A DNA stretch of 64,000 nt, taken from contig UQBS01000007.1 in NCBI GenBank assembly GCA_900539345.1, positions 8,246 to 72,245 of the forward strand, in the 5' to 3' direction. Every line of letters starts with the position of its first letter. Position 1 is the first letter of the stretch. The position numbers were made by a program, and so were the translations under genes. The notes below the pieces were generated by a model, which did no database searches, was not told the DNA's origin, and saw nothing but the letters and a program-made list of their open reading frames with translations. Of this stretch, positions 1-51,865 are shown piece by piece. Origin of the DNA: an uncultured Coriobacteriaceae bacterium. GTDB lineage: Bacteria; Actinomycetota; Coriobacteriia; Coriobacteriales; UMGS124.

Positions 1-219
1 CCCACTATCGAAGACGACGTGACCATCTACTCCAACGCCAGCGTCCTGGGCGGCCAGACCGTCGTGGGCAAGGGCGCCATCATCGCGGGCAGCGCCTTTG
101 TCACCGAGTCGGTGCCGGCCTATGCCCGCGTGAGTCTCAAAAACCAGGAGGTCGTGGTGCGCACACGCTCCGACGCCAAGCCCGCTCAGCCCGAGCCTGC
201 TCCCACCTGGGAGATTTAA
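1..219 (+). CDS. Hexapeptide-repeat acetyltransferase, serine O-acetyltransferase (CysE/EpsC)-like; C-terminal fragment with its 5' end outside the window
   Basis: The frame is open from base 1 (PTIEDD...) and continuous with ORF 19..219. TIYSNASVLGGQTVVGKGAIIAGSAFVTESVP is a left-handed beta-helix hexapeptide pattern typical of CysE-type enzymes. Confidence 0.55.
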   Translation, partial: PTIEDDVTIYSNASVLGGQTVVGKGAIIAGSAFVTESVPAYARVSLKNQEVVVRTRSDAKPAQPEPAPTWEI

Positions 220-327
220 ACTATCCAACAAGGTTCTGGCGCTTCTTTGGAGAAGGCCGGAGGCGCATATCCTCCGGGTATCATGTACGCACATGTACAC
301 GTCGATTTATCCCAAGGAATGAGGAAC

Positions 328-1288: not shown

Positions 1289-1371
1289 GGCTCCCCGAAT
1301 GGTCCAAGCGCAGTTTTGCAGCCGCGCCCTTCGCGGCGAAACTGTTTGAGCATTGGACCATTCGGGGAGCC
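1289..1371 (+). repeat. Family-B long hairpin element, copy B1
   Basis: A perfect 18-bp inverted repeat, GGCTCCCCGAATGGTCCA / TGGACCATTCGGGGAGCC, encloses the core GCGCAGTTTT-[GCCGCG cccTT CGCGGC]-GAAACTGTTTGAGCA. The same core recurs at 6233-6314. It lies 29 nt downstream of the icd stop codon. Confidence 0.8.
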
Positions 1372-2602: not shown

Positions 2603-2731
2603 GCGAGGTCTCCTTCCAGGTGCTCAGACAATGTCCCCGCCCATGATACGTTGCCGACGCCCCAGGCCCACCGCGCATCCCCCACCCGTCACCTGTTCGA
2701 AACCAAGTACCACAGTGGCTCCGTATACAGG

Positions 2732-3013
2732 CTATATCCCAAGGAGGTCCGCATGCGTTCCAGTACGCGCGGCGGTGAGAATAAGGTTGTTGCCATCGAT
2801 TCGATAGATTAAGAGCCAATCAGGCTCGATATGGCATTCCCTATGTCCGCGATAGTTGCCAACAAGCTGATGGTCTCTCATTGCCTCCGGAAGAGCTTGG
2901 CCCGCGCAAAGGAGCCGCAGCGTTTCTTCAAGTTTGCTCATATTTCGGCCACGCTTCCTTGCGAGCTTATAGTCCTTCTTGAACTGAGCGGTGTACTCAA
3001 GCGCGTACACCAT
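2732..3013 (-). CDS. yafQ: Type II toxin, YafQ/RelE-family mRNA interferase
   Basis: A 93-aa ORF. YKLARKRGRNMSKL...HQLVGNYRGHRECHIEPDWLLIYRI...RTGTHADLLG is collinear with E. coli YafQ. It starts 3 nt after the antitoxin stop codon. Confidence 0.85.
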   Translation of the reverse strand: MVYALEYTAQFKKDYKLARKRGRNMSKLEETLRLLCAGQALPEAMRDHQLVGNYRGHRECHIEPDWLLIYRIDGNNLILTAARTGTHADLLGI

Positions 3014-3016
3014 AGC

Positions 3017-3313
3017 CTACTCCTCGTCCAGGGAAGCCATCATCGCCTCGACGCTGTCAAAAGGACCGGTAACGTTACGGCCCGTCACTGCATCGTCCAT
3101 TGCCGCAAGCGTCTCAGGCGAAAAGCCTTCAGGATTCGCTGAATCAAAGGGCAGGCCGCCTCTGCGATTGAACGCAGAAACAAACATGCGCAAGGCATTG
3201 GCCGGCGTCGTTCCAATGGCCGAACAGGTTTTGAGAAACTGCTCTTTCTCCGACTTCGTCACCTTAGTAGAAAGAGGCGCATTGACCAGTACTGCTGAGC
3301 CAGGCATTAGCAT
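3017..3313 (-). CDS. dinJ: Type II antitoxin, RelB/DinJ family
   Basis: A 98-aa ORF with an N-terminal ribbon-helix-helix-like segment (STKVTKSEKEQFLKTCSAIGTTPANALRMFVSAFNRRGGLPF), positioned immediately upstream of yafQ. Confidence 0.8.
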   Translation of the reverse strand: MLMPGSAVLVNAPLSTKVTKSEKEQFLKTCSAIGTTPANALRMFVSAFNRRGGLPFDSANPEGFSPETLAAMDDAVTGRNVTGPFDSVEAMMASLDEE

Positions 3314-3347
3314 CGCCGCCTAAAACGAACGGAAGTAATTTAGAATA

Positions 3348-3380
3348 TATGCTATTGTATCCTATTAGAAGCTAATAGCA
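3348..3380 (-). promoter_or_regulatory. Candidate operator and promoter of the dinJ-yafQ operon
   Basis: In the AT-rich stretch upstream of dinJ there are nested inverted repeats: CTATTAG (3362-3368) N3 CTAATAG (3372-3378), inside GCTATT...AATAGC. This is the typical position for antitoxin autoregulation. Confidence 0.4.
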
Positions 3381-3444
3381 ACTCTTTCCTTATAGACCAG
3401 TCAAGCCCACCAGTTTTGAAAACCTGGGATGCATCCAGTTCATG

Positions 3445-4575
3445 TCACCGACTTTTACGATGCTCGATTACGTACTCAGCAGCAGACTTCACATAAGAGG
3501 GATTGAACCACAACCAGATGTGCTCATCGAGGTAATCTTCTATGACCTTGTTGACCTCCTGTAGGCACTCAATCTTGTCGGAATCGAAGCAGAGCACCGG
3601 AAGAGGTCTGTTGGCGTGGACGTAGTTGCATCTAAAACCATACCCAATGCCCAACATGAGATATGTGAGCGGGGTGCAACGAGGGCGATTGCTGCTCGCT
3701 GTTTTACTGTCTTTGTTCTCCATTACTGAAACCCACGAGTCAATTACCCTGTTATCAAGAGGTTTCACCCCGTGCTGTCTGCAAGATGAACGAACAAACC
3801 GCGTAACGGCCTTGTTGTTGTCGTCCTTTGGCAAGAGCCAGAGGCACTTTTGTTCCTCCGGTACCTCTCTATCCAACCACATAGCCAGGCAGTCAATACA
3901 GTTGGATTCACCGTAAGGCTTGGAGGACTTGCCGAGTAGCAGCCAAACAGCATTGGCCAGGAATCCATAGATGCCGTTCAATGCCATCCAAAGATTGACG
4001 AACCGATCTGCGACATTCTCCTTGCTCTTGGCGAGAACAAGGGCCCATAGCGAGCTGAACAAACGCTCGTACGTAATCTCAGCCTCGGGCCCCAACTTGC
4101 ATTTACCCGCTTTGCTGCTATTGAGATACCAACGGACTCTATCAGGTTCGATACTTATTCCTCCAGAAGCAGCAGGCAGACGCATCGCGATGCAGTCGAG
4201 TCCACAAGGCTCGCTTTCTATAAGCATGCCTTGTGGACTCTGCCGCTGAATACAAACCCTCGCCCAATAATTCCCGTTAATCAATCGTCCATATCTAAAT
4301 GCATGAAGCGCCGACGCCTTCAGAATCCCATCGCGAATGAGAAGCCCGCGCAGCCCCAGGCGAGCCATCTCATCCGCTTCTTTCTGCTCCTCGCCAGCTG
4401 CAATGTTCGCGTCAAACGACAGGGAAGCATAGCCTTCGGAAAGCATGAGAGATATTCCGGTCATCCTACCAAATGCGTAAGGCTCATAGACATAGTCCCA
4501 ACCCGTCATCTGGAATGGTTGGACGTAAGCCTCAGCATCCCGGCAGATTTGAAATTCAACGCGACCTTTCGCCAT
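3445..4575 (-). CDS. Hypothetical protein with a C-terminal HEPN-like Rx4H motif (possible Abi/defence-type RNase; function unproven)
   Basis: A 376-aa ORF with an ATG start in the lower-GC islet. The C-terminal helical region carries FVNLWMALNGIY and GFRCNYVHANRP; the R and H codons lie at 3631-3633 and 3616-3618. It starts 33 nt downstream of the preceding gene. Confidence 0.6.
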   Translation of the reverse strand: MAKGRVEFQICRDAEAYVQPFQMTGWDYVYEPYAFGRMTGISLMLSEGYASLSFDANIAAGEEQKEADEMARLGLRGLLIRDGILKASALHAFRYGRLINGNYWARVCIQRQSPQGMLIESEPCGLDCIAMRLPAASGGISIEPDRVRWYLNSSKAGKCKLGPEAEITYERLFSSLWALVLAKSKENVADRFVNLWMALNGIYGFLANAVWLLLGKSSKPYGESNCIDCLAMWLDREVPEEQKCLWLLPKDDNNKAVTRFVRSSCRQHGVKPLDNRVIDSWVSVMENKDSKTASSNRPRCTPLTYLMLGIGYGFRCNYVHANRPLPVLCFDSDKIECLQEVNKVIEDYLDEHIWLWFNPSYVKSAAEYVIEHRKSR

Positions 4576-4608
4576 GATTGGATGGTCCGCGAATGCCGAG
4601 TCAAATCT

Positions 4609-5679
4609 TTACTTCACACTATCTGAAGACTCAGCTGAGGCAACCCATATAACAGGACGGACTCCCAGAATAGCGTCCGGCCACCACTCTCCGTCACCAG
4701 TATCCGTATTGTAGGCATCATAGAGGTGCACTACTCCCAACGTAAACCCCGCTTCATCCCCATGGATTGCCCACCACCAAGGTATATTCGCCCACTTTTC
4801 ATCATCTTTTACGCCATTTTCGCGAGCATATGAGGTCAGTTCAACTGGATAGAGCATGGGCCGATATGTATCAACATCTGAAAATGTAAGAAGCGAAACC
4901 GTATCCTTTAAGTCATAAGCAGGGCCTATAAACTTCTCGTCCTCTGCTCCTGAACCCAAGTTCTCTTCCAGTAGTTCAGACCTTTCCTCAGCCGTAAACG
5001 ATTCTTCAAGAAACACACCATTTAGCCAGGCACGAAGGGTTGATGTACACCATAGACTGAACGAATGCTCATCAAACGGTTTCCCGTCAATTACGTCCTT
5101 CGTTACCAGCAGCGTCCCTTCATCGGTCCTATCGAGAACAATCCACTCGAGAGGCTCGGCGCCGTTTGATTCGTTACCGTCCTGTTCGTAAGAGCCATAC
5201 TCAACAATGTCGCCAATCTGAGCGTTTCGGACTTTTTGGACAGGGTTGTCGTTAGCAATAGCAGTTCGGGCGGCAATAACGGCAACAACCGCAATGACAC
5301 AAATCACCAGCGCAACAATGACCATCCTGATGCGCTTGCGCTTTGCCCTATACAGCGAGACAGCGCTCTCCGTCAGCGTCTTCAATTCATTAGAATGCTC
5401 ATCATCGCTGAAACGAAGGGCGTTCTTATACGACTGATGGCCCGTATAGTCCAATGCAATCGTGCCAAGGCCTTCTTGGTTCTTGACATGAACCTCAGCC
5501 ATAAGCTGAGCCAGATATGCGTCAGCACACTCTGGGTCAATATCGAGGACGTCGGAACAACGGGCAAGAGCCTCTTGCCATTTGCCTTCTTCGAGAAGCA
5601 GGTCAATCCTTCGCAAAAGCGTATCGATGCGAGTCTTTGGGGTCGCTTCGTTTTCGGTCGTTGACATGGAGGTCCTCAT
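4609..5679 (-). CDS. TPR-like / single-TM / DUF6273-domain protein
   Basis: A 356-aa ORF. The N-terminal helical repeat (GKWQEALARCSDVLDIDPECADAYL) is followed by one TM helix (IRMVIVALVICVIAVVAVIAA). After that comes GDIVEYGSYEQ...PLEWIVLDR...LRAWLNGVFLEESFTAEE, characteristic of DUF6273. An alternative ATG lies at 5667. Confidence 0.72.
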   Translation of the reverse strand: MRTSMSTTENEATPKTRIDTLLRRIDLLLEEGKWQEALARCSDVLDIDPECADAYLAQLMAEVHVKNQEGLGTIALDYTGHQSYKNALRFSDDEHSNELKTLTESAVSLYRAKRKRIRMVIVALVICVIAVVAVIAARTAIANDNPVQKVRNAQIGDIVEYGSYEQDGNESNGAEPLEWIVLDRTDEGTLLVTKDVIDGKPFDEHSFSLWCTSTLRAWLNGVFLEESFTAEERSELLEENLGSGAEDEKFIGPAYDLKDTVSLLTFSDVDTYRPMLYPVELTSYARENGVKDDEKWANIPWWWAIHGDEAGFTLGVVHLYDAYNTDTGDGEWWPDAILGVRPVIWVASAESSDSVK

Positions 5680-5715
5680 CTCTCGGCATGGAGCCTAATC
5701 CCAAAATGCCGCTTC

Positions 5716-5742
5716 AGAGTACCCCCCCCCCTCGCTTGTCAA
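5716..5742 (-). promoter_or_regulatory. Candidate promoter with a G10 homopolymer spacer
   Basis: On the minus strand the sequence reads TTGACA (5742-5737), AGCGA, G10 (5731-5722) and TACTCT (5721-5716). The spacer is 15 nt. The site lies about 35-50 nt upstream of the 5679/5667 start codons. Confidence 0.4.
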
Positions 5743-5898
5743 CGGCTATTCGTGCTTCAGTCGCAAATAGCCCGTCAAGCATTCCAGCTTGGACTGCAAG
5801 GCATTCGCGCACGAAAGTCCACCCTCAAACGAGCAATAGGAAGCATCACACGATTGCATCTATCAGCGCATAGAGCTCTCGCAGGATTGTTCGATTAG

Positions 5899-6129
5899 TT
5901 AAGCGGCTTGCCTGGCAAGCGCGTCCACAAGTTCCTTCTCCGAGGACACAAACTCATACGGCTCATACTCGCCGTATGCGGAAGACCTGGTAATGGTTAC
6001 CAACTGCAAGTCATTTGAACAGAAGCACTCTTCAATGCGACGTTTCATTTCAACCAAGTCCTGCCCAGCGCGCGTCCGCATTGCCAGGCAACCTGTTCTA
6101 CTGAACCACATGACGACAAGGTGGCACAT
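5899..6129 (-). CDS. Small hypothetical protein (76 aa)
   Basis: The ATG at 6129 is preceded by GAGGAG with an 8-nt spacer. I recognise no family. It lies in the lower-GC islet. Confidence 0.45.
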   Translation of the reverse strand: MCHLVVMWFSRTGCLAMRTRAGQDLVEMKRRIEECFCSNDLQLVTITRSSAYGEYEPYEFVSSEKELVDALARQAA

Positions 6130-6232
6130 ATCCCAATCTCCTCTTAAAACCGACTTCCGAGCGAATTCCCCCTGACTCGTAGAACCCACGGAGCGCCTGT
6201 CCTATGGCACGGGCTCAACGCTTATCAAACGT

Positions 6233-6314
6233 GGGCCGAAGGGCTGTTCAGGCGCAGTTTTTCGGCGCGGGTTATGCGCCGAAACTGTTTGAGCACTGAA
6301 CAGCCCTTCGGCCC
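6233..6314 (+). repeat. Family-B long hairpin element, copy B2
   Basis: A perfect 19-bp inverted repeat, GGGCCGAAGGGCTGTTCAG / CTGAACAGCCCTTCGGCCC, encloses GCGCAGTTTTT-[CGGCGC gggttat GCGCCG]-AAACTGTTTGAGCA. The core is shared with copy B1. Confidence 0.8.
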
Positions 6315-6356
6315 TAGGTGCGCATGGCAATCAGAGGCCGCCTCAATCGCTTGCAC

Positions 6357-6392
6357 AAAAAAAGGGCCCGAGGATTGCTCCTCGGGCCCTTT
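6357..6392 (-). terminator. Rho-independent terminator of the TRAP operon
   Basis: GGGCCCGAGGA (6364-6374) pairs with TCCTCGGGCCC (6379-6389). On the minus strand the hairpin is followed by a T7 run. Confidence 0.75.
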
Positions 6393-6427: not shown

Positions 6428-8410
6428 CTATGCCGCAGGCAGGGCTTCCTTCTTCTTTGCCGTGAGGTACTGGAAGGCCACGACAGCCACGGCGACGGCG
6501 ATGCCGACGACGTCGCTTGCAATGCCGGGAATCATGGCGCACAGGCCACCGACGACAAGCGCAATGCGCAGCACGGGGTTGATCTTCTTGAAGAGGTGGC
6601 CGTTGAGGGCCGCCGCGATGCAGAAGAGGCCGAGCAGGGCGGTGACGCACACGAGCGCCATCTCAAACACCGATGCGTCGCCTTCGAAGAGCATGATCGG
6701 GTTGAAGGCGAAGATGTAGGGCACGATGAACGCCGCAATGGCGAGCTTCGTGGCGTTGACGGCGGTCTTCATCGGCTTGGACTTGGCGATTGCGCTGCCG
6801 GCGTAGGCGGCCAAGGCCACGGGCGGCGTGATGTCGGCCACGATGCCGAAGTAGAAGACGAAGAAGTGCGCGGCAACCACCGGGATGCCCAGCTGAATGA
6901 GGATGGGCGCACACGTGGAGGCCATGATGCAGTAGTTGGCCGTGGTGGGAACGCCCATGCCCAGAACGATGCAGCACACCATGGTGAGCAGCAGGCCCAG
7001 GATGGTGGCGTCACCGGCGATGGCGACGATACCGTTGATGAGCACGGAGGCAAGACCGGTCAGCGTGATGCAGCCAGCGATAAGGCCGGCCATGGCGCAG
7101 GCAACGCCCACCGACACGGCGCTCTTGGCACCGGCCTGGAAAGCCTCAAAGGCCTGCTTCAGGGCGAACATCGTGGTCTCGGCAAACACCTGGCCAATCG
7201 TCTGGCCCTCGGCACGCTCATGCAGGTTGTTCAGAAAGAAGTTGACATACCCGATGAGGAAGGCAGCGAAGATGGAGATGGCGGCCGACCAAGCCATGGT
7301 GCGGGCACCCGACGCGACGAGCCACACGAGCAGCACAAGCGGCAGCAGCAGGTAGCAGTTCTTGCCCAGATAGCGCCACGTGGGCAGGTCCTCACGCGAA
7401 AGGCCCTTGAGCCCGAGCTTCTTGGCCTCGAGGTGCACGGTGATGAAAATGCCGGCGAAGTACAGCACGGCGGGCAGGATGGCCTTGGCAGCCACGTCGA
7501 TGTAGGGAATGCCCATGTACTCGGCCATGAGGAATGCCGCCGCACCCATGATGGGGGGCATGATCTGGCCACCGGTGGAAGATGCTGCCTCAACGGCGCC
7601 GGCGAACTCGGGCTTGAAGCCGGTCTTCTTCATCATGGGGATGGTGACGGAGCCCGTGGTGACGGTGTTGCCCACCGAGGAGCCGCTCACCATGCCGCAC
7701 AGGGCGCTCGAGATGACAGCCACCTTTGCAGGGCCGCCGCTCGACCAGCCAGCAAGGCGGTTGGCCAGGGAGATGAAGAAGTTGGCGATGCCCGTGCGCT
7801 CCAGGAACGCGCCGAAGATGATGAAGAGCACGATGTAGGTGTAGCACACGTTGATGGGCGTGCCGATGACGCCGTTCACGCTGTAGAACAGGCGGCTGAT
7901 GATGTACTGGAACATCTTGAACGGGTCGGAGTTGTAGCCGCTGCGCCAAACCACGACGTAGATGAGCAGGGCGGCAACCACGATGAGAATCGGGATACCC
8001 ACGCAACGACGGCACAGCTCGAACAGCACGAGAATGCCCACGACGCCCATGACGATGAGCGGCAAGTCGATGCGGTTGTTCATCATGATGATGTCGTAGG
8101 CGTTGAACGCAAAGTAGAAGAACGAGCCTGCGCCCAGCACCATGAGAACGATGTCGTACCACGGGATGCGGTTGGGCTTGACGTGGTGCTTGTCGGCCGG
8201 GTAAATCAAGAAGCCGATGATAATGATGCAACCCAGGAACAGCGACAGGCGCGTCTCGGGCAACACGGTGCTGAAGAGCGTCATGTACAGGCAGTACACG
8301 GAGAACGCCGCCATGATGCAGCCGACAATGGTCTTGGGGATGCCCTGCCACACGCGTGTATTCGACTCGCGGTCGTACTTCTTCATCACCGCGTCGACAT
8401 CAGTCTGCAT
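6428..8410 (-). CDS. TRAP transporter fused (DctQ-DctM type, 4TM/12TM) permease, TAXI class
   Basis: A large polytopic ORF (689 aa in the track) with the architecture of TAXI-associated fused permeases. The likely ATG at 8410 (MQTDVDAVMKKYDRESNTR) follows GAGGAA. Confidence 0.88.
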   Translation of the reverse strand: MQTDVDAVMKKYDRESNTRVWQGIPKTIVGCIMAAFSVYCLYMTLFSTVLPETRLSLFLGCIIIIGFLIYPADKHHVKPNRIPWYDIVLMVLGAGSFFYFAFNAYDIIMMNNRIDLPLIVMGVVGILVLFELCRRCVGIPILIVVAALLIYVVVWRSGYNSDPFKMFQYIISRLFYSVNGVIGTPINVCYTYIVLFIIFGAFLERTGIANFFISLANRLAGWSSGGPAKVAVISSALCGMVSGSSVGNTVTTGSVTIPMMKKTGFKPEFAGAVEAASSTGGQIMPPIMGAAAFLMAEYMGIPYIDVAAKAILPAVLYFAGIFITVHLEAKKLGLKGLSREDLPTWRYLGKNCYLLLPLVLLVWLVASGARTMAWSAAISIFAAFLIGYVNFFLNNLHERAEGQTIGQVFAETTMFALKQAFEAFQAGAKSAVSVGVACAMAGLIAGCITLTGLASVLINGIVAIAGDATILGLLLTMVCCIVLGMGVPTTANYCIMASTCAPILIQLGIPVVAAHFFVFYFGIVADITPPVALAAYAGSAIAKSKPMKTAVNATKLAIAAFIVPYIFAFNPIMLFEGDASVFEMALVCVTALLGLFCIAAALNGHLFKKINPVLRIALVVGGLCAMIPGIASDVVGIAVAVAVVAFQYLTAKKKEALPAA

Positions 8411-8571
8411 TTCCTCGGCAGGAAGGGCGGTCTGGCTGGAATCTGCCACTTGTTTACACCTCCAAGAGTGTGAAAACGGATAGGTCACAAAACGCAAGGG
8501 AAGCCGCTGCAGTCAGGAGCAACCGCAGCGACTTCCGATTGTAGCGCAAGGAGAATTGGGAGAAGGCGAAG

Positions 8572-11372: not shown

Positions 11373-11565
11373 CGAGCGCTTGAGGGAAGGAGGGTATCCT
11401 ACGCCTGCCCAAGTCCTCGTACCGAGGGCAGCGGGAAACCGGGGCACGGGGCGCTTCGCGCCTTGTGCCCCTTCCCTTGCCCTCACTGCGGGGGACAGGC
11501 TTCGGAAACCCTCCTTCCACGCACGTCTATCCTGTAAGAAGCGTTTAATCAACCCGCGCAACGCC

Positions 11566-11832
11566 GCGCATCAGGTTCCGCGACCCATTAAAAAGCAGGC
11601 TCTCAGGCGCAAGGCGCGCAGGTGCGATGTGCGCGGTGCGGGCCTTTGGCCTACTGGAGTACATGAGGCACCGTGCATGGAGCGCTCTTTGCGACAAGTC
11701 CCGTAGAGAACGCGGCGGATCGGGTTCCGCAATCCACTAAAAAGCAGGTTCTCGTCCGCAAGGCGTCCAGAGGCGATGCGTACTGGAGTACGTGAGCCTC
11801 TGGAGAACGCAGCGGACGAGGTTCTGCATCAC
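11566..11832 (+). repeat. Family-A modular hairpin repeat, locus A1 (a 3' fragment, a long unit and a short unit)
   Basis: The short unit spans 11736-11832. Its parts are ACTAAAAAGCAGGTTCT, CGTCCGC, AAGGCG, TCCAGAGGC, GATGCGTACTGGAGTACGTGA, GCCTCTGGA, GAACGCA, GCGGACG and AGGTTCTGCATCAC. It abuts the stop codon at 11833. Confidence 0.85.
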
Positions 11833-12228
11833 TTACGCGTAGATCTCTTTTTCCACGACGAGGTCGTTCTTGATTTTCCCCACCAGCTTGTTGAGCGCGT
11901 CGATGCAGCGCGGACGGATATCAGCGCCAATCATGACGTACATGATGGAGTCACCCACGTTGAGGGCGCCCTCGTTGAGCCACGTGCGGACGTAGTACAC
12001 GCCAGGCCAGCTGAGAGCCTCCTTCTCAGCGGCGGCCACGCCCTCGGCATCGTAAGAGAACTCAACCTGGGCGACCTCGCCCAGACCCTCAACACCCTCG
12101 CGCACCTGCTGCTTGGGCGTGATGCGCACCACGCCGTTGTGCGTAAGGAACATGCCGCACTGGGCGGCCTTGGGGTCGGCCTTGGCCTCTTTGAGCCAGG
12201 CATCCATCGAAGGTTCGGGCTTTGCCAT
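11833..12228 (-). CDS. MoaE-fold (molybdopterin synthase large-subunit-like) protein
   Basis: GMFLTHNGVVR...EFSYDAEG...GALNVGDSIMYVMIGADIRPRCIDALNKLVGKIKNDLVVEKE follows the MoaE pattern (TFxGxVR ... HRxGxLxxGD ... KE). The likely ATG at 12228 follows GGGAG. No moaD gene is adjacent. Confidence 0.5.
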   Translation of the reverse strand: MAKPEPSMDAWLKEAKADPKAAQCGMFLTHNGVVRITPKQQVREGVEGLGEVAQVEFSYDAEGVAAAEKEALSWPGVYYVRTWLNEGALNVGDSIMYVMIGADIRPRCIDALNKLVGKIKNDLVVEKEIYA

Positions 12229-12268
12229 ATCCATACTCCCTTTGGTCTCATACACACTTGACGGTTAT

Positions 12269-12306
12269 CAAAAACGCCGCCTGACATTGTACCCGTCAGA
12301 CGGCGC
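12269..12306 (-). terminator. Terminator after the HEAT-repeat gene
   Basis: CGCCGCCTGAC (12275-12285) pairs imperfectly with GTCAGACGGCG (12295-12305). On the minus strand the hairpin is followed by TTTTT. Confidence 0.55.
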
Positions 12307-12428
12307 AAAAGAAGCGCATATGCGAAACTAGAGGTCAACGCAACCCGAGCATGAATCCACACAGGGGACCAAGCCGCACATTCAACTCGATAGCGGCGCA
12401 TGCGTGCAGGACCGCGTTGAACGCCCTT

Positions 12429-13394
12429 CTACTCGAACGTGGCAAGCGCTTGCGTCACGAGGGGGGCCAGGACATCCGGAAGCGCGGAGACGGAAGCGTC
12501 AAAAGCCGAAAGGGTCGCATGGGCCTTGCCGTCGTGGATGCGCGCGAGGCTCTCCACCGCATAGCGAGCCCCCCACTCGGCCTCGCCGGCAAGGGCGCCC
12601 TCAAGCACCGCCTGCACCTGGTCACGCGAAGCGCTCTGCGCACCACAGGCAAAGCCGAGGGCCCACACCGCCGTGGAAGAGACATCCGAATCAGGGTCGG
12701 TAGCACAAACGAGCAGGGCAGACAGCACACGCTCCCCCACGCCCTCGTTGCGCTCGCAGCGGCGGGCCAGAGCGTCGAGCGCTGACACCTTCACAAGCGC
12801 GTCCTCCTCCGCCTGGGACAGGCGCTCAAGCAGAAGCTGCTCGCCGGCCTCGTCGTCGGTGGCAGCCAGAGCGGCGCAGGCGTTTGCACGCACGCGGACC
12901 ACATCGTCTTCGAGAAGCACGGTGAGGGCATCGGTCGCACGGGCATCGCGCAGCGTGCCCAGCACGGCGGCAGCATCGGCGCGCACACCGTCGTCGGGGT
13001 CGAACGCCATGACGGCGATGGGCGTAAAGAGCTCGGCGCGCTCGGCGTCAGTCAGCCCCGCATGGGCCACCACGTTGGCAAGGCCCCACAGCACACCTGC
13101 GCGCACACCGGCGCACTCGTCATGGCGGTGGGACAGAAGCGCGCCCACGCACGCAGCGTCGGCCTCGCGCGCGAGCGCCTGACAGGCCAGGGCACGCACG
13201 CCCTCCTCGGCATCCTCCAGCGCACGGCAGAGCAGCTCGGTGGACACCGGGCTCTTGATGCGCCCCAAAGCCACGACGGCGCTCTTGCGCACGCGCACAT
13301 CGGAATCGGTCAGCATGGGCTCCAAAGAGCGCGCACGCTCGTCAGGCGTGCGGCCGTCGTCCGGGCGCACCGCTGTTTCGTCAGTCTCGGCCAT
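12429..13394 (-). CDS. HEAT-repeat (PBS-lyase-type) protein
   Basis: A 321-aa ORF with repeated D..VR..A...LG modules (VRKSAVVALGRIKSP, GVRALACQALAREAD, VRAGVLWGLANV, GVRADAAAVLGTLRD, VRVRANACAALAA). Confidence 0.78.
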   Translation of the reverse strand: MAETDETAVRPDDGRTPDERARSLEPMLTDSDVRVRKSAVVALGRIKSPVSTELLCRALEDAEEGVRALACQALAREADAACVGALLSHRHDECAGVRAGVLWGLANVVAHAGLTDAERAELFTPIAVMAFDPDDGVRADAAAVLGTLRDARATDALTVLLEDDVVRVRANACAALAATDDEAGEQLLLERLSQAEEDALVKVSALDALARRCERNEGVGERVLSALLVCATDPDSDVSSTAVWALGFACGAQSASRDQVQAVLEGALAGEAEWGARYAVESLARIHDGKAHATLSAFDASVSALPDVLAPLVTQALATFE

Positions 13395-13435
13395 GGGGCC
13401 CCTTTCCGTAGGTCAAAGTCATACCCACGCACCAT

Positions 13436-13479
13436 ACCAAAGCGGGGCGCCGCCCGCACACTCCCAAGCAGCGCCCCGC
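13436..13479 (-). terminator. GC-rich hairpin, a possible terminator downstream of clpB and the repeats
   Basis: GCGGGGCGC (13442-13450) pairs with GCGCCCCGC (13471-13479). On the minus strand it is followed by TTTGGT. The T tract is weak. Confidence 0.4.
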
Positions 13480-13501
13480 AATCTATCTCTCAAACACCGC
13501 A

Positions 13502-13770
13502 CTTAAAAGCGCAGGTTCTGCATCACTCTAAAACGCAGGTTCTGGCCTGCAAGGCGCGCGATGCCAACGTGCGCGGTGCGGGCCCCTGACCTACTAGAGT
13601 ACTCTAGGCATCGCGCATGGAGCGTTCTTCGCGACAAGTCCCGTGGAGAACGCAGCAGGCCAGGTTCTGCATCCTCTAAAACGCAGGTTCTCAGGCGCAA
13701 GGCGCACGGAGCCGATGTGTACTGGAGTACATGAGGCTCCGTGGAACACAGCGCCTGAGGTTCTGCGTCG
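13502..13770 (+). repeat. Family-A modular hairpin repeat, locus A2 (an uninterrupted flank motif, a long unit and a short unit)
   Basis: The flank motif without a hairpin lies at 13502-13526. The long unit spans 13527-13674 (outer stem GGCCTGC/GCAGGCC, inner stem CGCGATGCC/GGCATCGCG). The short unit spans 13675-13770 (outer stem CAGGCGC/GCGCCTG, inner stem CACGGAGCC/GGCTCCGTG). It abuts the clpB stop codon. Confidence 0.88.
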
Positions 13771-13772
13771 CT

Positions 13773-16427
13773 TTACTCGACCGAGTCGGGCTCGACGGGG
13801 ACGTCTTCGGGGCTGGCCGCCCTCTGCGCACGAGCCTTGGCCGAGGCCTCCTCGTCCTTCTCGACCACAATGTTGCCGTCGTTGTCGACGTCGACGCGCA
13901 CCACGTCGTTCTCAGAGAGCTTGCCGTCGATGATGAGGTTCGCGATGCCGTCGACCACCTTGTTCTGGATGAGACGACGTAGCGGACGGGCGCCAAACGC
14001 CGGATCGAGGCCGCCCAGGCTGAGGGCGTCCATGGCACTGGGCGTCACGGTCATGCTGAGACGCTCGCGAGCAAGGCGTTCGCGCACGTCGTCAAGCTGC
14101 AGGTCGACAATGCGCTCGATGTCGGCGTAGCCCAGCGAGTTGAAGTACACCACATCGTCGATACGGTTGACGAACTCCGGGCGGAAGGCCTGCTTGAGCA
14201 CCTCTTGCATCTTCTGCTGCAGCTCGTCTTTGCCCGTGGTCTCCAGAATGAACTGCGAACCCAGGTTGCTCGTCATGATGATGATGGCGTTCTTGAAGCT
14301 CACCACGCGGCCCTGGCCGTCGGTAAGCCTGCCGTCATCGAGCACCTGGAGCAACACGTTGAAGACGTCGGGGTGCGCCTTCTCAAGCTCGTCGAGCAGC
14401 ACCACGGTGTAGGGATGACGACGTACGGCCTCGGTGAGCTGACCGCCCTCGTCGTAACCCACGTATCCCGGAGGGGCACCGATGAGGCGCTGCACGCTGA
14501 ACTTCTCCATGTACTCGCTCATGTCGATACGCACCATGGCGCGCTCGTCATCGAACAAGGCTTCTGCCAGCGCCTTTGCCAACTCGGTCTTACCGACGCC
14601 GGTGGGACCCATGAACAGGAAGCTGCCCAGGGGACGGTCGGGGTCAGACAAGCCTGCACGAGAACGACGCACGGCGCTCGCCACGGCGTGGACGGCCTCG
14701 TCCTGACCGATGACGCGCTCCTTGAGGTGCTCCTCGAGGTGACGGAGCTTCTCCATGTCGCCTTGCATCATCTTCGACACGGGCACGCCCGTCCAGGCGC
14801 TCACCACAGCGGCGATCTCGTCTGCGGTGACCTCCTCCTTGAGGTTAGCGCCGGCCTCCTGCTTGGCGCGCAGGCGCTGCTCGGCGTCGCGGTAGTCGGC
14901 CTCAAGCTTGGGGATCGTGGAGTAGCGCAGCTCGGAGGCACGCATGAGGTCGCCGGAACGCGTGGCGCGCTCCTCTTCGCTGCGGGCTTCGTCAATCTGG
15001 CTCTTGAGCTGCTGCACCAGGTCGATGATGCCCTTTTCGTTCTGCCAGGCCGCCTTGGCGGCGTCGAGCTTCTCACGGGCATCGGCGATTTCGTGGCGCA
15101 GGGTCTGCAAACGCTCGGCGCTGGCCTCGTCGTCCTCCTTCATGAGCGCCTGCTCCTCGATCTGCATCTGAGTGAGCTGGCGCTCCTGGGCATCGATGTC
15201 GCTGGGCATGGAGTCGAGCTCCATCCTCAGGCGGCTGCCGGCCTCATCGACCAGGTCGATTGCCTTGTCGGGCAGGAAACGGTCGGTGATGTAGCGGTCG
15301 GAGAGCTGGGCTGCGGCCACAAGCGCAGAGTCGGTGATACGCACGCCGTGGTGGATCTCGTACTTCTCCTTGATGCCACGCAGGATGGAGATGGTGTCCT
15401 CCACCGTGGGCTGGTCGACCATGACGGGCTGGAAACGCCTGGCAAGAGCCGCGTCCTTCTCGATGTACTTGCGGTACTCGTCAAGCGTCGTGGCGCCGAT
15501 GGCATGCAGCTCGCCACGGGCAAGGGCGGGCTTCAAGATGTTGGAGGCATCCATGGAGCCACCCGAGGCGCCGGCACCCACGATGGTGTGCAGCTCATCG
15601 ATGAACAGGATGACGTTGCCGCCAGCCGCCGCGACCTCCTTGAGCACGGCCTTCAGGCGGTCCTCGAACTCGCCACGGTATTTGGCGCCTGCCACCATGG
15701 CGCTCATGTCGAGCTCGATGAGCTCGCGGTCACGCAGGGTCGAAGGCACGTCGCCGGCAACGATGCGCTGCGCAAGGCCCTCGACGATAGCCGTCTTGCC
15801 GGTACCGGGCTCACCGATGAGCACGGGGTTGTTCTTCGTGCGGCGCGAAAGCACCTGCACCGTGTGACGAATCTCCTCGACACGACCGATGACCGGGTCG
15901 AGCTTGCCCTCGCGGGCCAGGTCGGTCAGGTTGCGACCATACTGCTTGAGCGCCTCGAACTGGGGCTTGCTCTCGGCGTCGGTCACGCGCGAGTCACCGC
16001 GGAGCTGCTCGTAGGCGTCCTGCACGCGCTTGGCCGTCACGCCGGCGTCGTTCAGGATGCGACCGGCGTCGCCCTTGTCGCCTGCAAGCGCGATAAGCAG
16101 GTGCTCGGTGGTGGCAAACGAGTCGCCCATCTTCGAGGCGAGCTTCTGCGAAGCGTCGAGCACGCGCATGAGCCCCTGGCTCATGCCGGCCTGGGAGCCG
16201 CCGCTCACGCGGGGCTGGCTTGCCAGCTTCTCGTCAACAGTAGCCTTGAGCTGGGCGGGGTCGGCGCCCACACGCTCGATGATGGCATCGAGGTTGCGCT
16301 CGGAGCTCTCAAGCAGGGCCTTCAGAAGGTGAAGGCTTGTGACCTCGGAAGCCTCCATGTCGGAGGCAACGCCCACGGCTTCCTGCAAAGCGGCCTGGGC
16401 GGTCATTGCGAATTTGTCAATCCTCAT
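13773..16427 (-). CDS. clpB: ATP-dependent chaperone / disaggregase ClpB
   Basis: The product has two AAA+ modules ([15 protein letters not shown] and [15 protein letters not shown]), a middle coiled coil and a Clp N-domain. The likely ATG at 16427 gives MRIDKF. The ORF frame overlaps the hspR stop codon. Confidence 0.96.
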
Positions 16428-17875: not shown

Positions 17876-18026
17876 TTGCGGAACCTGATGCGCCACGTTG
17901 CGCGATACCTAGAGTACCGCCGTAGGCCAAAGGCCCGCACCGCGCACGTCGGCATCGCGCGCCTTGCGCATCAGAACCCGCGTCGGTAAAGGCGAAACCT
18001 GATGCGCGGTCTTGCGCAGGCATCAG
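17876..18026 (-). repeat. Family-A modular hairpin repeat, locus A3 (inverted orientation; a long-type unit and a degenerate mini unit)
   Basis: The parts are GCGGAACCT, GATGCGC, ..., GGCCAAAGGCCCGCACCGCGCAC, ..., GCGCATC and AGAACCCGCGT. The middle module is the reverse complement of the A1/A2 long-unit module GTGCGCGGTGCGGGCCTTTGGCC. It lies between grpE and dnaJ. Confidence 0.8.
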
Positions 18027-21455: not shown

Positions 21456-21654
21456 TTGCGGAACCTCGTCCGCTGCGTTCCGCGGAGTCTCATGTACGTC
21501 CAGTACACATCGACTCCGCGCGCCTTGCGGACGAGAACCCGCGTTTTGGCAGGCGGAACCTGATGCGCTGGCATGTGGTACGCTGCGGCTCCGCGCGCTT
21601 TGCGCATCAGAACCTGCGTTTTGGTGGGCGGAACCTGGCCTGCTGCGTTTTGGG
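21456..21654 (-). repeat. Family-A modular hairpin repeat, locus A4 (inverted orientation; a short unit, a truncated unit and a fragment)
   Basis: The short unit spans 21458-21549 (outer stem CGTCCGC/GCGGACG, inner stem CGCGGAGTC/GACTCCGCG, apical TCATGTACGTCCAGTACACATC). A GATGCGC...GCGCATC unit and a GGCCTGC fragment follow. The locus starts 3 nt after the TAG stop codon at 21451-21453. Confidence 0.85.
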
Positions 21655-21963: not shown

Positions 21964-22140
21964 ACCAAAACGCGGCCCCCGCACAACACGCGAGCGTCCG
22001 CTCAAGACGCGGCTCTCACGCGGCGCATCAGGTTCCGCCCATTAAAACGCGGGTTCTCGTCCGCAAGGCGCCGGGAGGCGATGCGTACACATGGTACGTG
22101 AGCCTCCCGGGAACGCAGCGGACGAGGTTCCGCTACATCC
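21964..22140 (+). repeat. Family-A modular hairpin repeat, locus A5 (a degenerate unit and a short unit)
   Basis: The short unit spans 22041-22140. Its parts are ATTAAAACGCGGGTTCT, CGTCCGC, AAGGCG, CCGGGAGGC, GATGCGTACACATGGTACGTGA, GCCTCCCGG, GAACGCA, GCGGACG and AGGTTCCGC. It abuts the stop codon at 22143. Confidence 0.85.
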
Positions 22141-37959: not shown

Positions 37960-40900
37960 CTATCTTAAATCATCGAGCATGCCCGCCAAAACCCATCCAT
38001 AAGAACTCACCGAAGCCCAACGAGAGCCAAGGCCTTCGACATAGGGGCACCAGCCGGCCAGCCAAGAGGAGAAGCGCGGGTCGACCAGGGGGTGCTTGAG
38101 CAAGCTCGTGTTGCCGGCGTAGTCGGCCATGCGCGGGTCGGCGTAGAGGCGCAGGTGCTGCACCTGGGCGCGCAGTCCCTCGCGCACCGAGGCGAACGTG
38201 TGGCCGGCAGCGCCGTCGTCGGTGGCGCCCAGGCCGGAGAAGTTGCACTGAGTGGGGTCGACCTGGCCTCCAAAGCGCAGGTAGCCGGTCTCATTCATGG
38301 CCTGCACGTACACCACGCCCGGGTCGACGCCCTCGTCGCGCGCCTCTTCGTAAAGAATCTTGCAGAACTCCTCGATGGTGGCCGCGCCCTTGTCCTTGTA
38401 CACATCGGCAGGGTAGGTCGCCCCAGAGGCCTTGTAGTCGGCGACCATGTCGGCAACCGTGACCTTGCTGTTTGCGTTCATGATGGGGTGCAAGGCCGTG
38501 GAGAACTCAACCGTGGCAAAGGCCTGCTTCTCCGCGTCTGCCGTGGGAGCCGCCCACACCTGCGCGACATAGTCGCCTGCGGCCAGCTGCGAGCGGGCGA
38601 GCTCGACTGCCCACGTACCCTTGGCCTCGCCAGCCGAGGAGAGGTCGAGGTCTTCGACATAGCGGGCGATGAACCACTGGGCAGTCGTGGCGTCGGAGCC
38701 TGCCTTCCAGATGGCGATGCTCACCGCACCTGCGGGCTTTACCTGGCCCGACGGGATCCAGAACTCATAGCCCGCTCCCTCGTCGGTCATCCTGCACGAA
38801 AGGGCGGTTACCTCAAAAGGGGCGTTTTCGCCACCCCCGTTGTCGGGCGCGGACCAACCGATGACACCCGAGAAGACGTCGAACATCTTTGCTGCCTGGG
38901 CGCGGGTGGCAGATTCCTTGGGGTTGAGCAGCGCAATGCCGGTGGTCGTATCGCCGGTGAGGATGCCCTTGGCGTTGCACCAGGCAAGCGCGTCATAGGC
39001 GAAGTCGCTCACCTCGTCGGCATCATAGAACGCGTCGATGGAGCCAACGTACACGTTGAGCCCGCAGCCCTTGGCATAGCGCCACAGCATGGTGGCGAGC
39101 TCCTCGCGGCTCACCGTCTTGTCGGGACGGAAAAGGCCGGCATACTCGCCGTCCTTGTAGCCGGTGACGATCCCCTGCTGGTAGGCCCACTCGATTGCGG
39201 CGGTATACCACTGCCCGAGGGCGACGTCGGGGAAGCTCGACTCCATGCCGTAATTGGAGGGGTCGGTGGTGGAGGTGCTCGAGGGGTTCGCGATGCGGTA
39301 GAGCATCGTGGCCACCATGCCGCGCGTCATGGTCTCTTCCGGGCCAAAGGTACGGCACACCCCGTCGTCATCGGAGAAGCCGGTCATGATGCCGGCGTCG
39401 ACCACATGCGCCACATAGTCCAGGTACCACTCGCCAGCTTCGAGGTCGTTGAAGCGCTTGACCTCGCCCGTGGTGGAGACACTCGCCAGCACGGAGTTGG
39501 CGGCGCTTGCCACATACCCGTCGAAGCGCAAGGTACCTACGACCACGTCTGCGGGAAGCTTGAAAGAAGCCTCCCAGGTCGTACCATCGACCTTGGTCAT
39601 CTCAAGCGAATGCATGGTGCCGTCGGGGAAGGTGACGTCAACATAGAAGTGGGCAGCGCCGGACAGGCCGGTGGAACCGCCAAGCGTCACGGTGCGCGTG
39701 GCGCCGTCGATGTCGGCAACGTGCAGCTCGCTCAGCGACAGGCCGGAGTTGTCCTTGTCCTTGGACAGACCAAAGAAGTCGGCGATGCCCTTGGCGTCGG
39801 CAACGCCGAGGTCGTGCAACGCCGTGTCGCTTGAGAGGAACTTGTAATCGTCCTTGCCGGAGATGAACGCATGCTCGACGATGATACCGGGGACGTTGTT
39901 CTTCTTGGTGTTGCGGATGATGGAATAGTAGTCGCGCTCGTTGCCAGAGCCGTCGATGTAGGTGTCGTTTTCCTTGATGCCGCGGTCATACAGGCCCAGG
40001 GCGACAAGGCGATCCTGAATGGACTGCGCGAGGTTCTCGCCGTCCTGGGTGACGGTGGTGATGCCGGCGCTGTAGTTGGGGAACCACACCTCGGCACCAT
40101 GGGAATTCGACGTGTCGGCCGAGTTGATGTGGATGCTCACGAACACCGAAGCGCCCGCAGCAACGGCATCGGCGACGCGGCGCTTGAGGCATTCGGCCTC
40201 GTTGTGGTCGTAATCGGTGAAGTAGGGGCAGTCGCCCGAATCGTCGCGCGTCATGTAGACGCTCACGCCGGGGTAGGTCTCCAGCTCATCGCGGCATGCC
40301 TGGGCGATCTTGAGCGTGAGTTCCTCTTCTCGCAGGTCTTGGCCCTGGGCGCCGGGAGACTGGTTGTCATGACCGGGATCGAGGGCAATGACAAGGCCGG
40401 GAAGCTTCGTTGTAGCCTGGCCCTCGGCGTCGGAGGCGGCATCGACGGCCATGGCGTTGAGCATGACGTCGGAGACGCCCGCGACGTCGAGCGCGTCCTC
40501 GACGCTCTGGGCTTCCACAAGCTCGCCTGCGGCGTCGATGGTATAGGCGGTGAGGTCGGCAACAGGTTCAGTCGCCTGGGTGACCTCAAACACATACGCG
40601 CTGGTAGAAAGCGCAAAGTCCACCGCATGCTCGCTACCGTCGGCAAGGGTGTACGAGAGGGACCTCAGAGACGAGGTTCCCTGGCCGAGCAGCGCCGTAT
40701 CGATATTGAAGAGCATGGCCTCCATGTCGATGGCAGAAACCTCAACCTCAACGTCACCGTAAGGCGAGGAAAGGGTGAGCTGGGCAGACACGACCTGGCT
40801 CGCCTCATCGGCAAGCATGAGCGCGACCTGCTGGGTCTGGCCCTCCTCCAAGCTCGCCAGGGAAACGTACACCAAGGAGAGTGCCTCTTCGGGAGCGAGG

Positions 40901-41292: not shown

Positions 41293-41354
41293 CGTGTGCT
41301 CCTTACTTCTCGTATGGCTCCGCAAGACGCACGGCGGCGTATGCGGAAAGTCAA

Positions 41355-41393
41355 CAAAAGCACCTGGCATGGTACCATCCCCATGCCAGGTGC
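41355..41393 (-). terminator. Rho-independent terminator
   Basis: GCACCTGGCATGG (41360-41372) pairs with CCATGCCAGGTGC (41381-41393). On the minus strand it is followed by TTTTG. Confidence 0.7.
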
Positions 41394-41472
41394 ATGATTC
41401 CGCAATTGGAAAAACAGCGTTCCGTCCCTGCCGCGCCGTTATTGTATACAGCCAAAATGCCTGGTCAGAAGG

Positions 41473-43224: not shown

Positions 43225-43375
43225 CAATGGTGCGCCCTTCCGACAACAATCAGGTGTACGAGCGGGGCCAGTCTACACCATGCCAGAGCAACGCGCATCG
43301 CATAGAGGCACGAGACGCCCTGCGGCACCCGAGCGCGACACAAACAGACGATAAGAATGGCCACAACCCGAAACA

Positions 43376-43414
43376 CGCGCGCCCCGCACTCCAGGTTCGA
43401 GGGCGGGGCGCGCG
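43376..43414 (-). terminator. Perfect 12-bp GC hairpin between two SLH genes (possible terminator)
   Basis: CGCGCGCCCCGC (43376-43387) pairs with GCGGGGCGCGCG (43403-43414). The loop is ACTCCAGGTTCGAGG. The T tract is weak. Confidence 0.4.
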
Positions 43415-43591
43415 CTAGTTGGGGAGTAGGGCCCCGAGTGACGGGCTCCCCTACTAGGTCAGGCTGAAAGACTCAAACTCAGCGGAGCCGAGACCCGAGC
43501 CGGTACCAGATACAAAGGCAGGCTCGGAGCTTGCAGACTCGGAGGGCACGGCGGGCTGCACGGGTTCGCCGGGGACCGCAGGCCCGGAGGG

Positions 43592-48403: not shown

Positions 48404-48632
48404 GCGAACCTCCAATCGATCACAACAACACGCACTTTGCCGGCGCACATGATACGCCACATCGAAACTGCGAGATTGTAAAAAGTGAGACGGTCCGAAC
48501 GCGAGGGTCGATCAGCTTAACCGCCTGAAAACGACGCGTCCCCACCCCTCTAGCAAAGGCGCTCGCTTCTCCTTTTCTCTTTGGCGACCAATTCGAGGGC
48601 GAAACGCGAGGCGGTAAGCTGCCCACCCTCAA

Positions 48633-48680
48633 ACGCAAAAAGCCCGCCGGGCGAGGGGTGCTCCCCTGCCTGGCGGGCTT
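48633..48680 (-). terminator. Rho-independent terminator
   Basis: AGCCCGCC (48641-48648) pairs with GGCGGGCT (48672-48679), with inner pairing as well. On the minus strand it is followed by TTTTTGCGTTT. Confidence 0.68.
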
Positions 48681-48705
48681 GTGTGCGGTATCGGTGTGCG
48701 GCGTC

Positions 48706-51696: not shown

Positions 51697-51865
51697 CCGT
51701 TTCAATCGTCACGAGCAGCCCCGGCCCGAAGGCCGGGGCATAACTCTCACATGCGTCAAGGGTACCAGCCCTCGCGGCGGATGGGGCGAGCAAAAACAAA
51801 CTAACGGAGTGTTTCAAACGCTCCATAAACCCAAAAATCAACAACAGGTGCGTTTCTGCCCCCGC

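Follow-up and report, generated by a model that had tools for sequence, protein, structure and literature searches.

Inside-out conservation in a probable family of gene-end hairpins from Coriobacteriales and other bacteria

Extragenic palindromic hairpins present in high copy number at the 3' ends of genes and in operons are known from Enterobacteria and Pseudomonas, where the REP, BIME and REPIN elements, which go with RAYT transposases, act as single strands and are long-lived. Integron attC sites conserve structure over sequence, carry extrahelical bases, vary in apical length and fold from the strand that is antisense to the preceding open reading frame (ORF). Correia/NEMIS and other miniature inverted-repeat transposable elements (MITEs) are short palindromes repeated at dispersed sites, and their transcripts fold into long hairpins. 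TRIT (Tuberculosis Rho-independent terminator; Gardner et al., 2011) has been reported in Mycobacterium only, with 147 copies in M. tuberculosis; its usual position is near −8 with respect to the stop codon, conservation extends along its stem, and its authors proposed that a factor binds a conserved double-stranded motif (PMC3152330). The subject of this study is a pair of hairpins in a 64,000-nucleotide stretch of DNA, hereafter the window, from an uncultured Coriobacteriaceae bacterium (GenBank assembly GCA_900539345.1, contig UQBS01000007.1, positions 8,246 to 72,245). Taking family membership and evolutionary behaviour together, we consider it highly probable that both loci are members of a large intergenic hairpin family, which we did not find catalogued, and which is present in more than one phylum. 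Conservation in these hairpins is 'inside-out', with a fixed centre and free arms, and we class the family among the interspersed gene-end palindromes.

Copy 1 occupies 1289–1371 and copy 2 occupies 6233–6314, both on the + strand, and the covariance model R1 finds no others in the window (82.9 bits, E = 1.5e-18 and 89.2 bits, E = 4e-20, respectively). In copy 1, the 5' outer arm GGCTCCCCGAATGGTCCAA (1289–1307) is followed by the invariant 5' junction half GCGCAGTTTT (1308–1317), a variable apical hairpin with the paired strands GCCGCG/CGCGGC (1318–1337), the invariant 3' junction half GAAACTGTTTGAGCA (1338–1352), which comprises the AACUG helix strand, the UUGA bulge, GC and a bulged A, and the 3' outer arm TTGGACCATTCGGGGAGCC (1353–1371). 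The corresponding parts of copy 2 are arms at 6233–6251 and 6296–6314, junction halves at 6252–6261 and 6281–6295, and an apical hairpin at 6262–6280. The pattern GCGCAGTTTT-N(8-30)-GAAACTGTTTGAGCA has exactly two matches in the 64 kb, at 1308–1352 and 6252–6295, and 0.00 matches in dinucleotide shuffles. The arms are 19 nt long and 100% complementary in each copy, and for each a single hairpin is the predicted structure (−59.8 and −63.8 kcal/mol; z = −9.7 and −10.1). In the predicted fold of both, CAGUU pairs with AACUG and GC with GC, and the 3' strand carries a 4–5 nt bulge (UUGA) plus a single bulged A; the two apical hairpins are short and GC-rich, differ in sequence, and are both paired. 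Copy 1 has its 3' side toward icd (1400–2602, − strand; Pfam Iso_dh, 1.2e-52), the stop codon of which, at 1400, is 29 nt away. The 3' side of copy 2 faces the stop codon at 6428, 114 nt away, of a gene for a fused TRAP transporter permease (DctM; 6428–8497, − strand; Pfam DctM, 5.7e-91), and between the two is the canonical terminator hairpin of the permease gene (6361–6392, − strand; inverted repeat I13 followed by a T-run). An earlier note on this DNA had described a core shared in the same orientation, perfect long arms in each copy, an inner hairpin that changes and stays paired, core pairing that leaves a bulge, and a position of both copies downstream of the minus-strand icd and permease genes, and all of these features are borne out. 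No family reached the Rfam 15 gathering threshold anywhere in the window, and around copy 1 a search at E ≤ 10 returned only sub-threshold eukaryotic microRNA and small nucleolar RNA families and Dictyoglomi-1. Six further loci from other lineages gave no Rfam family match to the hairpins either.

A scan of one genome per species with the pattern GCAGTTT-N(8-32)-AAACTGTTTGAGC listed at least 118 loci, about 46 of which have the full architecture, the remainder being chance matches inside genes. Beyond the search pattern itself, every true copy has GC before GCAG, TT after GCAGTTT and A after GAGC. R1 recovered 16 more copies in the same loci with slightly variant cores (CTGTCTGAGC, GCGAGTT, and CAGTTC/GCTG, the last with a compensating change), and a scan of metagenomes gave about 50 further copies from more lineages, at a GC content of 37–67%. 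In total, the pattern and covariance-model searches, of the kind that the note had proposed, found more than 100 copies beyond the window pair. The apical part ranges across the family from near nothing or a bare triloop up to a nested palindrome of about 100 nt. The anatomy is that of an outer stem of about 19–37 bp of free sequence, then an invariant asymmetric junction (5' GC-G-CAGUU ... AACUG-UYUGA-GC-A 3', in most copies with two additional U on the 5' strand), and at the top an apical hairpin free in sequence and length.

One group of carriers comprises metagenome-assembled genomes (MAGs) and isolates of the Coriobacteriales (Olsenella, Atopobiaceae and Coriobacteriaceae). The window itself comes from a gut member of the Coriobacteriia, with an icd that is 85–87% identical to icd of Slackia, Adlercreutzia and Atopobiaceae. 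A second group comprises three MAGs labelled Planctomycetia or Omnitrophota, hereafter PVC-like (Planctomycetes, Verrucomicrobia, Chlamydiae), two of which share syntenic proteins at 55–73% identity and thus represent one lineage. Additionally, one high-GC metagenome organism has a minimal version of the hairpin in tandem arrays. Two 'cleanbin' assemblies labelled Alistipes and Acutalibacteraceae have copies on contigs with Coriobacteriales-like GC, and several of these loci are orthologous to loci of Coriobacteriales MAGs. The loci in question are L007, L010, L101, L104 and L112 (labelled Alistipes onderdonkii) and L044, L065 and L082 (labelled Acutalibacteraceae), with a contig GC of 56–65%; because L007, L044, L065, L101 and L104 are orthologous to Coriobacteriales loci, the bins appear to be contaminated or mislabelled. 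No copy of the hairpin was found in viral contigs or in phage and plasmid collections. A literature search on the core sequence and on repeats of Coriobacteriia returned nothing relevant, the core string occurring only by chance in unrelated papers, apparently in primers.

Some copies have repeats of other kinds around them. In the Omnitrophota-labelled MAG (L006, L017, L031 and L078), the hairpins are flanked by two more dispersed repeats, AAAAAGTTGACACTTTTTTTA and GATTGCCGCGTC...CTCCTCGCAAAGACAGATGGGATG, in a repeated unit of more than 200 nt, and on the metagenome contig L173 (GC 40%) the hairpin is within a tandemly repeated unit of about 300 nt with flanking direct repeats of about 90 nt. 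Inverted repeats ATGTTTGAG/CTCAAACAT flank some copies in one MAG only. Extra TGTTTGAG sites in the flanks were considered as protein-binding sites and set aside, being present in four copies only, all from the PVC-like organism. At L192:4060–4290, four CTCAAATCCGGATTTGTGTG-like sites (palindromic AAATCCGGATTT) are spread between hairpin copies in one long intergenic region; they look like an array of transcription-factor binding sites.

The arms of the hairpins are free in sequence, and their history can be traced. Copies 1 and 2 have the same letter at 8 of 19 arm positions. The 5' arms of Coriobacteriales copies have a common consensus, GGGCCCCGGTATGGTTCAG, with a mean pairwise identity of 9.8/19, compared with 5.3 in shuffled arms, and in a leave-out position matrix the window arms fit better than their own shuffles (p = 0.0006 for copy 1, p = 0.010 for copy 2). 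In strains with 90–99% identical icd, the hairpin is at the same place, 26–31 nt after the icd stop codon, and these orthologues have four distinct arm haplotypes (GGGGCTCCCCGAATGGTCCAA, GGGGCCCCGGTATGGTCCAA, GGGGGCCGAGGAACGGTTCAA and GGGGCCTCCTGAATGGTCCAA), which are recognisably homologous, to the arm of copy 1 as well, and are each perfectly paired. In a 41-sequence alignment of 24 outer-stem pairs, 22 of the 24 change on both sides, and none of 500 shuffles reached the observed covariation score. The arms of either window copy have no other match in the window at up to 3 mismatches. The earlier note had held the arms of the two copies to be completely different and unable to have drifted from a common ancestor; the homologous, perfectly paired arms of the icd orthologues and the shared consensus refute both views. 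The possibility of target-derived arms, which it raised for checking, fails on the missing match in the window and on the homology of arms between different loci, and its alternative, subfamilies under strong structural constraint, is upheld by the covariation.

Among six icd orthologues, the mean pairwise identity is 0.98 and 1.00 in the junction halves (the 5' half is 100% identical among co-oriented orthologues), compared with 0.71–0.74 in the arms, 0.75 in the apical hairpin and 0.71–0.80 in the spacer and flank, which indicates purifying selection on the junction at this single locus. The arms change at about the rate of the unconstrained neighbouring DNA, and pairing is never lost. The same combination of a fixed junction and drifting, paired arms is found after other genes in different species, and different species carry hairpins at matching sites behind the same genes, consistent with vertical inheritance. 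Copy 2 has orthologues with homologous arms in L132 and L135, and two strains that carry an additional hairpin beside Bax1-I (L133 and L134) have an identical icd protein and three compensated arm pair changes between them. Arms are shared within the genome in the PVC-like MAGs, whereas on Coriobacteriales contigs they differ between copies. The compensated arm differences have a transition to transversion ratio of 115:67, a figure that does not distinguish conversion from selection. These comparisons show that the copies are inherited at fixed intergenic positions and that their arms are diverged homologues that stay paired. Apart from the hairpin itself, we observed that TAGAAGCC (1265–1272, + strand) is complementary to GGCTTCTA (1395–1402, + strand), as read from the sequence; the two could form an outer helix around copy 1 that takes in the icd stop codon, the reverse complement of which (1400–1402) is part of GGCTTCTA. 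Because this helix is invariant in the six orthologues, covariation neither supports nor refutes it.

In two independent assemblies of one species (L065 and L132, with 93% identical icd), the core is inverted relative to the gene, between arms AAGCTCCCGGTACGGTCCAG that are homologous to the window arm GGCTCCCCGAATGGTCCAA. The orientation of copy 1 is the same in the window and in L119, L120 and L126–L129 (seven contigs with identical or 99%-identical icd), and since the flip is confined to the species with 93% icd identity, we regard it as an evolutionary event rather than phase variation. An inverton was rejected given the single orientation in all seven close contigs and the lack of a recombinase gene beside copy 1 or copy 2. 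Template switching between the arms of an inverted repeat homogenises the arms and inverts the spacer (PMC8604942; see also quasipalindrome mutagenesis, PMC7202029), and both outcomes are seen here between orthologues. Such switching would explain how arms can change at the rate of their flanks and remain perfectly paired. We infer that template switching within the palindrome may maintain the arms, transferring a change made in one arm to its partner and now and then flipping the core, with selection for a long duplex perhaps acting alongside it. As a general mutational process, it leaves the invariance of the junction and the existence of the family unexplained. The local fold-back copying invoked in the earlier note is thus plausible as upkeep of the arms, given their perfect pairing at a flank-like rate of change and the core flip in L065 and L132, and is not tenable as their origin.

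Copies are also gained, lost and modified. The nrdD-nrdG spacer of different genera has one or two copies, among them a half-deleted copy and a copy with a nested palindrome in its apex. At two of these loci (L080:300–448 and L104:774–919), the apex holds a second long palindrome with its own arms of about 19 bp and a different centre, CCGCTTATGCATGCAAGCATGCAACGCG, a sequence arrangement that suggests that additional palindromes can insert into hairpin apices. Strains whose icd is 94% identical have a hairpin-bearing segment of about 155 nt between the Bax1-I and hexapeptide-repeat genes that is missing in the window strain (window 1–250 compared with L133:6700–6950 and L134:9155–9430), and this one clean filled/empty comparison (L133 against the window strain) revealed no target-site duplication. 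Copy 2 is itself part of a strain-variable segment (2720–6360), along with about 45 nt of flank and a 3.5-kb toxin-antitoxin island (relB/yafQ, a hypothetical gene, DUF6273 and DUF6718). The whole segment is absent from strains with 99% identical icd, the permease terminator at 6361–6392 is kept in strains without copy 2, and a more distant species has copy 2 without the 3.5-kb island. Comparison with L126–L128, L132 and L133–L135 marks the TRAP permease–icd spacer as a hotspot of strain variation, and in other strains it holds different toxin-antitoxin pairs, always directly adjoining a hairpin copy.

The two strands of the hairpin are not equivalent. With G·T and A·C in the outer stems scored alike, the strand reading GCAGUU...AACUGUYUGAGCA (hereafter the GCAG strand) has 41 G·U compared with 7 A·C (72:9 in a first scoring), which argues that this strand is selected to fold. 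The GCAG strand is also the more stable one in 13 of 14 PVC-like copies (by a mean of 9.4 kcal/mol) and in 20 of 28 Coriobacteriales copies. Transcription- and replication-linked mutation biases would, for co-oriented genes, favour G·T on the sense strand of the gene. The observed bias is the opposite, and we therefore take the asymmetry to mean that the GCAG strand is under selection to fold. On these statistics, the element probably works as a folded single strand, and the strand in question is the GCAG strand.

Placement at genes is oriented as well. With gene calls that took codon-position GC into account, the 3' side of the GCAG strand faces an opposite-strand stop codon 42 times, at a median of about 20 nt, and a same-strand start codon 11 times, six of them at 17–53 nt; the distance from the 5' side of the hairpin to its neighbour is 40–460 nt. 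Metagenome loci have the same pattern as genome loci, and when orthologues are allowed for, about 30 independent loci are antisense after a stop codon compared with about 4 in the sense orientation. The neighbours are unrelated housekeeping genes (pdxA, mfd, recJ, priA, a lon-like gene, leuBCD, icd and nrdDG). At L184 and L144, as at window copy 2, a canonical terminator stands between gene and hairpin. At L035, a back-to-back pair of hairpins, opposite in orientation, separates a gene under ZTP-riboswitch control from a purH-like gene, probably in one operon; the ZMP/ZTP riboswitch itself (L035:5095–5185, 55.9 bits) is upstream of the gene that precedes the pair. The tails that follow the hairpin in Coriobacteriales have 1.1 T per 10 nt on the GCAG strand compared with 2.45 on the other strand. 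A Shine-Dalgarno-like or purine-rich tail was considered and did not reach significance (p = 0.08).

The oriented placement at gene edges leads us to read the element as a factor-dependent boundary hairpin like REP/BIME or the mycobacterial TRIT, and we favour this as the best overall explanation, tentatively and short of calling it probable. Because the helices of the junction are conserved in sequence without covariation, direct read-out is indicated rather than pure structure. It is possible, although we would put it no higher, that the invariant junction has a protein-docking boundary function. The bulged junction would then be the docking site of a sequence-specific factor, and the outer arms would need to supply about two turns of duplex and nothing more. 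Lying at the edge of a transcription unit, with its 3' side toward the neighbour and in most cases antisense to a gene whose end is about 20 nt off, the element would take effect on the strand directed at that gene end, either as RNA or as DNA made single-stranded for a short time, and would serve there as a barrier or as a site of processing or stability. A bolder version strikes us as doubtful, if conceivable: that a single-strand nucleic-acid enzyme or RNA-binding factor recognises the junction and has been exchanged, together with the hairpins, between Coriobacteriia and PVC-type bacteria, and that the hairpins are a new class of strand-specific gene-boundary elements acting antisense to the preceding gene, for example by stopping or processing transcription that enters genes from their 3' ends. 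Such a class would differ from both REP/RAYT and classical terminators.

Several observations weigh against a factor-dependent boundary hairpin. No partner protein was found, and no gene recurs beside the hairpin across lineages in about 1.5 Mb of loci, the only recurrence being housekeeping synteny (leuBCD, mfd and similar). A promoter of its own was not detected in 72 non-redundant copies, in which TANNNT occurs 47 times forward and 53 times reverse upstream, and 49 and 41 times downstream, with the proviso that promoters of high-GC Actinobacteria are hard to recognise; because there is no −10-like enrichment upstream and the GCAG strand is antisense at most sites, the source of a GCAG-strand RNA is unexplained. 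For lack of a positional promoter signal, an independent small RNA gene is likewise not demonstrable. No U-tract follows the hairpin in Coriobacteriales copies. Some copies precede a start codon by about 20 nt, in the 5' untranslated region, or fall within a probable operon, and one lineage has tandem copies in the sense orientation. The patchy spread across phyla, the genome-specific apical hairpins and the tandem duplications, as well as the nested and half-deleted copies and the presence/absence differences between close strains, fit a selfish element at least as well. Finally, orthology or paralogy links many of the copies counted, which leaves about 30–40 independent loci behind the statistics.

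The same observations bring in the main rival, a mobile element, selfish or domesticated and non-autonomous, of the kind of REP/REPIN with RAYT or of the IS200/IS605 type. Here a single-strand-specific enzyme encoded elsewhere would recognise the bulged junction of the GCAG strand in DNA form and would copy or move the hairpin, and the two would have spread together between phyla. This would account for the strand bias as well as the patchiness, for folding that is strand-specific without a promoter, for the identical core in Coriobacteriales and PVC-like MAGs, and for the high local density and tandem copies; the similar apical hairpins within genomes (and similar arms in the PVC-like MAGs) point to recent expansion, and the ATGTTTGAG/CTCAAACAT inverted repeats around some copies of one MAG, together with the nested, half-deleted and presence/absence states, are in keeping with mobility. 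We nevertheless judge such an element unlikely, though to be taken seriously, because it has no conserved termini and left no target-site duplication at the one clean filled/empty comparison, because about 1.5 Mb of loci contain no split or autonomous copy and no recurrent neighbour gene, and because phage and plasmid collections contain no copy. Moreover, orthologues persist across species with a core under purifying selection while their flanks decay, which is unexpected of dead insertions, and the roughly 9:1 orientation bias relative to genes exceeds what replication-linked insertion would produce. A search for a split or autonomous element with cargo between the junction halves was negative, every isolated 3' half being a chance match in coding sequence. 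Like REP and REPIN elements, the hairpins are extragenic, multi-copy and found at gene ends. REP copies, however, have a stem and a 5' GTAG-type tetranucleotide that are common within a genome and species-specific, whereas here the stems are locus-specific (8 of 19 arm positions alike in the window copies, and arms that differ in Coriobacteriales and are shared only in the PVC-like MAGs) and the central junction is identical across phyla; also unlike REP/RAYT, no RAYT-like gene was seen in the loci examined. A MITE in the strict sense was rejected. MITEs have conserved terminal inverted repeats and target-site duplications, and the hairpin family has neither: its outer ends are variable, no duplication is seen between L133 and the window, and flanks resembling terminal inverted repeats (ATGTTTGAG) occur only in some copies of one MAG. 

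A sequence-conserved terminator or mRNA 3'-end stabiliser of the upstream gene, similar to TRIT and acting as the reverse-complement RNA on the transcript of that gene, we consider improbable. Most of the hairpins do begin 2–35 nt past the stop codon, no other hairpin lies between icd and the terminator of the next gene, the gene-sense tail is the T-richer one (2.45 vs 1.1 per 10 nt), the distal arms in one PVC-like MAG are A-rich and U-rich like those of bidirectional terminators, the flipped orthologue L065 is followed by TTTTTG, and TRIT is a precedent: it too is actinobacterial, multi-copy, tightly linked to gene ends and conserved in sequence and structure, with an inferred binding factor (PMC3152330). 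In contrast to TRIT as described, the present hairpins have free stems and a fixed sequence only at the internal junction; they begin downstream of the stop codon, and the strand that folds better is the one antisense to the gene. The asymmetries of wobble pairs and stability favour the wrong strand for this role, the intervening canonical terminators at copy 2, L184 and L144 place the hairpin outside the normal transcript, Coriobacteriales copies have no real U-tract, and termination would be harmful about 20 nt upstream of start codons or in the probable ZTP-controlled operon. An ordinary intrinsic (Rho-independent) terminator was rejected outright, on the missing U-tract, on a terminator scan that did not call the hairpins, and on the separate canonical terminator at copy 2. 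A single-stranded recombination or integration site, attC-like and marking insertion hotspots of small cassettes, is quite improbable. As with attC bottom strands, the folded strand is antisense to the preceding ORF, the apical length varies and extrahelical bases are present, and the TRAP-icd spacer has three different toxin-antitoxin islands directly adjoining the hairpin, depending on the strain. The stem bases, however, are of free sequence and lack RYYYAAC/GTTRRRY boxes (the R''/R' core sites of attC); the conserved CAGTT/AACTG helix is internal and of opposite polarity, with GTT on the 5' side and AAC on the 3' side, and has an extra stem of 19–37 bp outside it. Cassette arrays are absent, the neighbours being syntenic housekeeping genes; the islands lack a second site at their far end, and no integrase is nearby. 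Least probable by far is an inserted core whose arm pair was made de novo at each insertion site by local fold-back copying: the arms of Coriobacteriales copies are perfect and locus-specific, and the core flip shows that template switching does operate on these palindromes, but the family consensus, the absence of any match to nearby sequence and a filled/empty difference of about 155 nt, rather than a core plus one copied arm, already contradict such an origin, as do the homology of arms between loci and between orthologues and the PVC-like MAGs, in which the arms clearly belong to the repeated unit. Resemblances to the hammerhead, k-turn, attC, boxA and Y-RNA were judged by eye, and in all of them the order or spacing of the conserved nucleotides does not fit.

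The window contains other repeats. A second, unrelated family of nested hairpins is present at 11585–11834, 13525–13773, 17878–18014, 21458–21650 and 22039–22133, with outer arms resembling GCAGGTTCTCGTCCGC/GCGGACGAGGTTCTGC, a variable middle, enclosed inner stems and CCAYTAAAAA in front; Rfam at E ≤ 0.1 gave no match on 11400–14000. On the minus strand, 38880–53230 holds five to eight diverged paralogues of one gene segment (repeat families D1, D3, D5, D7 and D10), and at 43540–43860 (about 43.5–43.9 kb) there is a tandem repeat with a periodicity of 9/18/27 nt (D2 and D4).

If the factor-dependent boundary hairpin is the right reading, a bulged helix of 25 nt would be fixed letter for letter at many gene ends per genome, with its surroundings free to change, and the core would be identical in human-gut Coriobacteriia (Olsenella/Atopobiaceae, Coriobacteriaceae, and relatives of Slackia/Adlercreutzia) and in unrelated environmental bacteria. 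A core fixed in this way would imply an undescribed trans-acting partner and, in a group that is medically relevant but little studied, a level at which transcription units are organised. The family is also a clean natural case of palindrome arms that evolve at a neutral rate and stay perfectly paired around a centre that is occasionally flipped, and the covariance model could let annotators mark these sites, rather than mistake them for microRNA-like hairpins or call ORFs across them.

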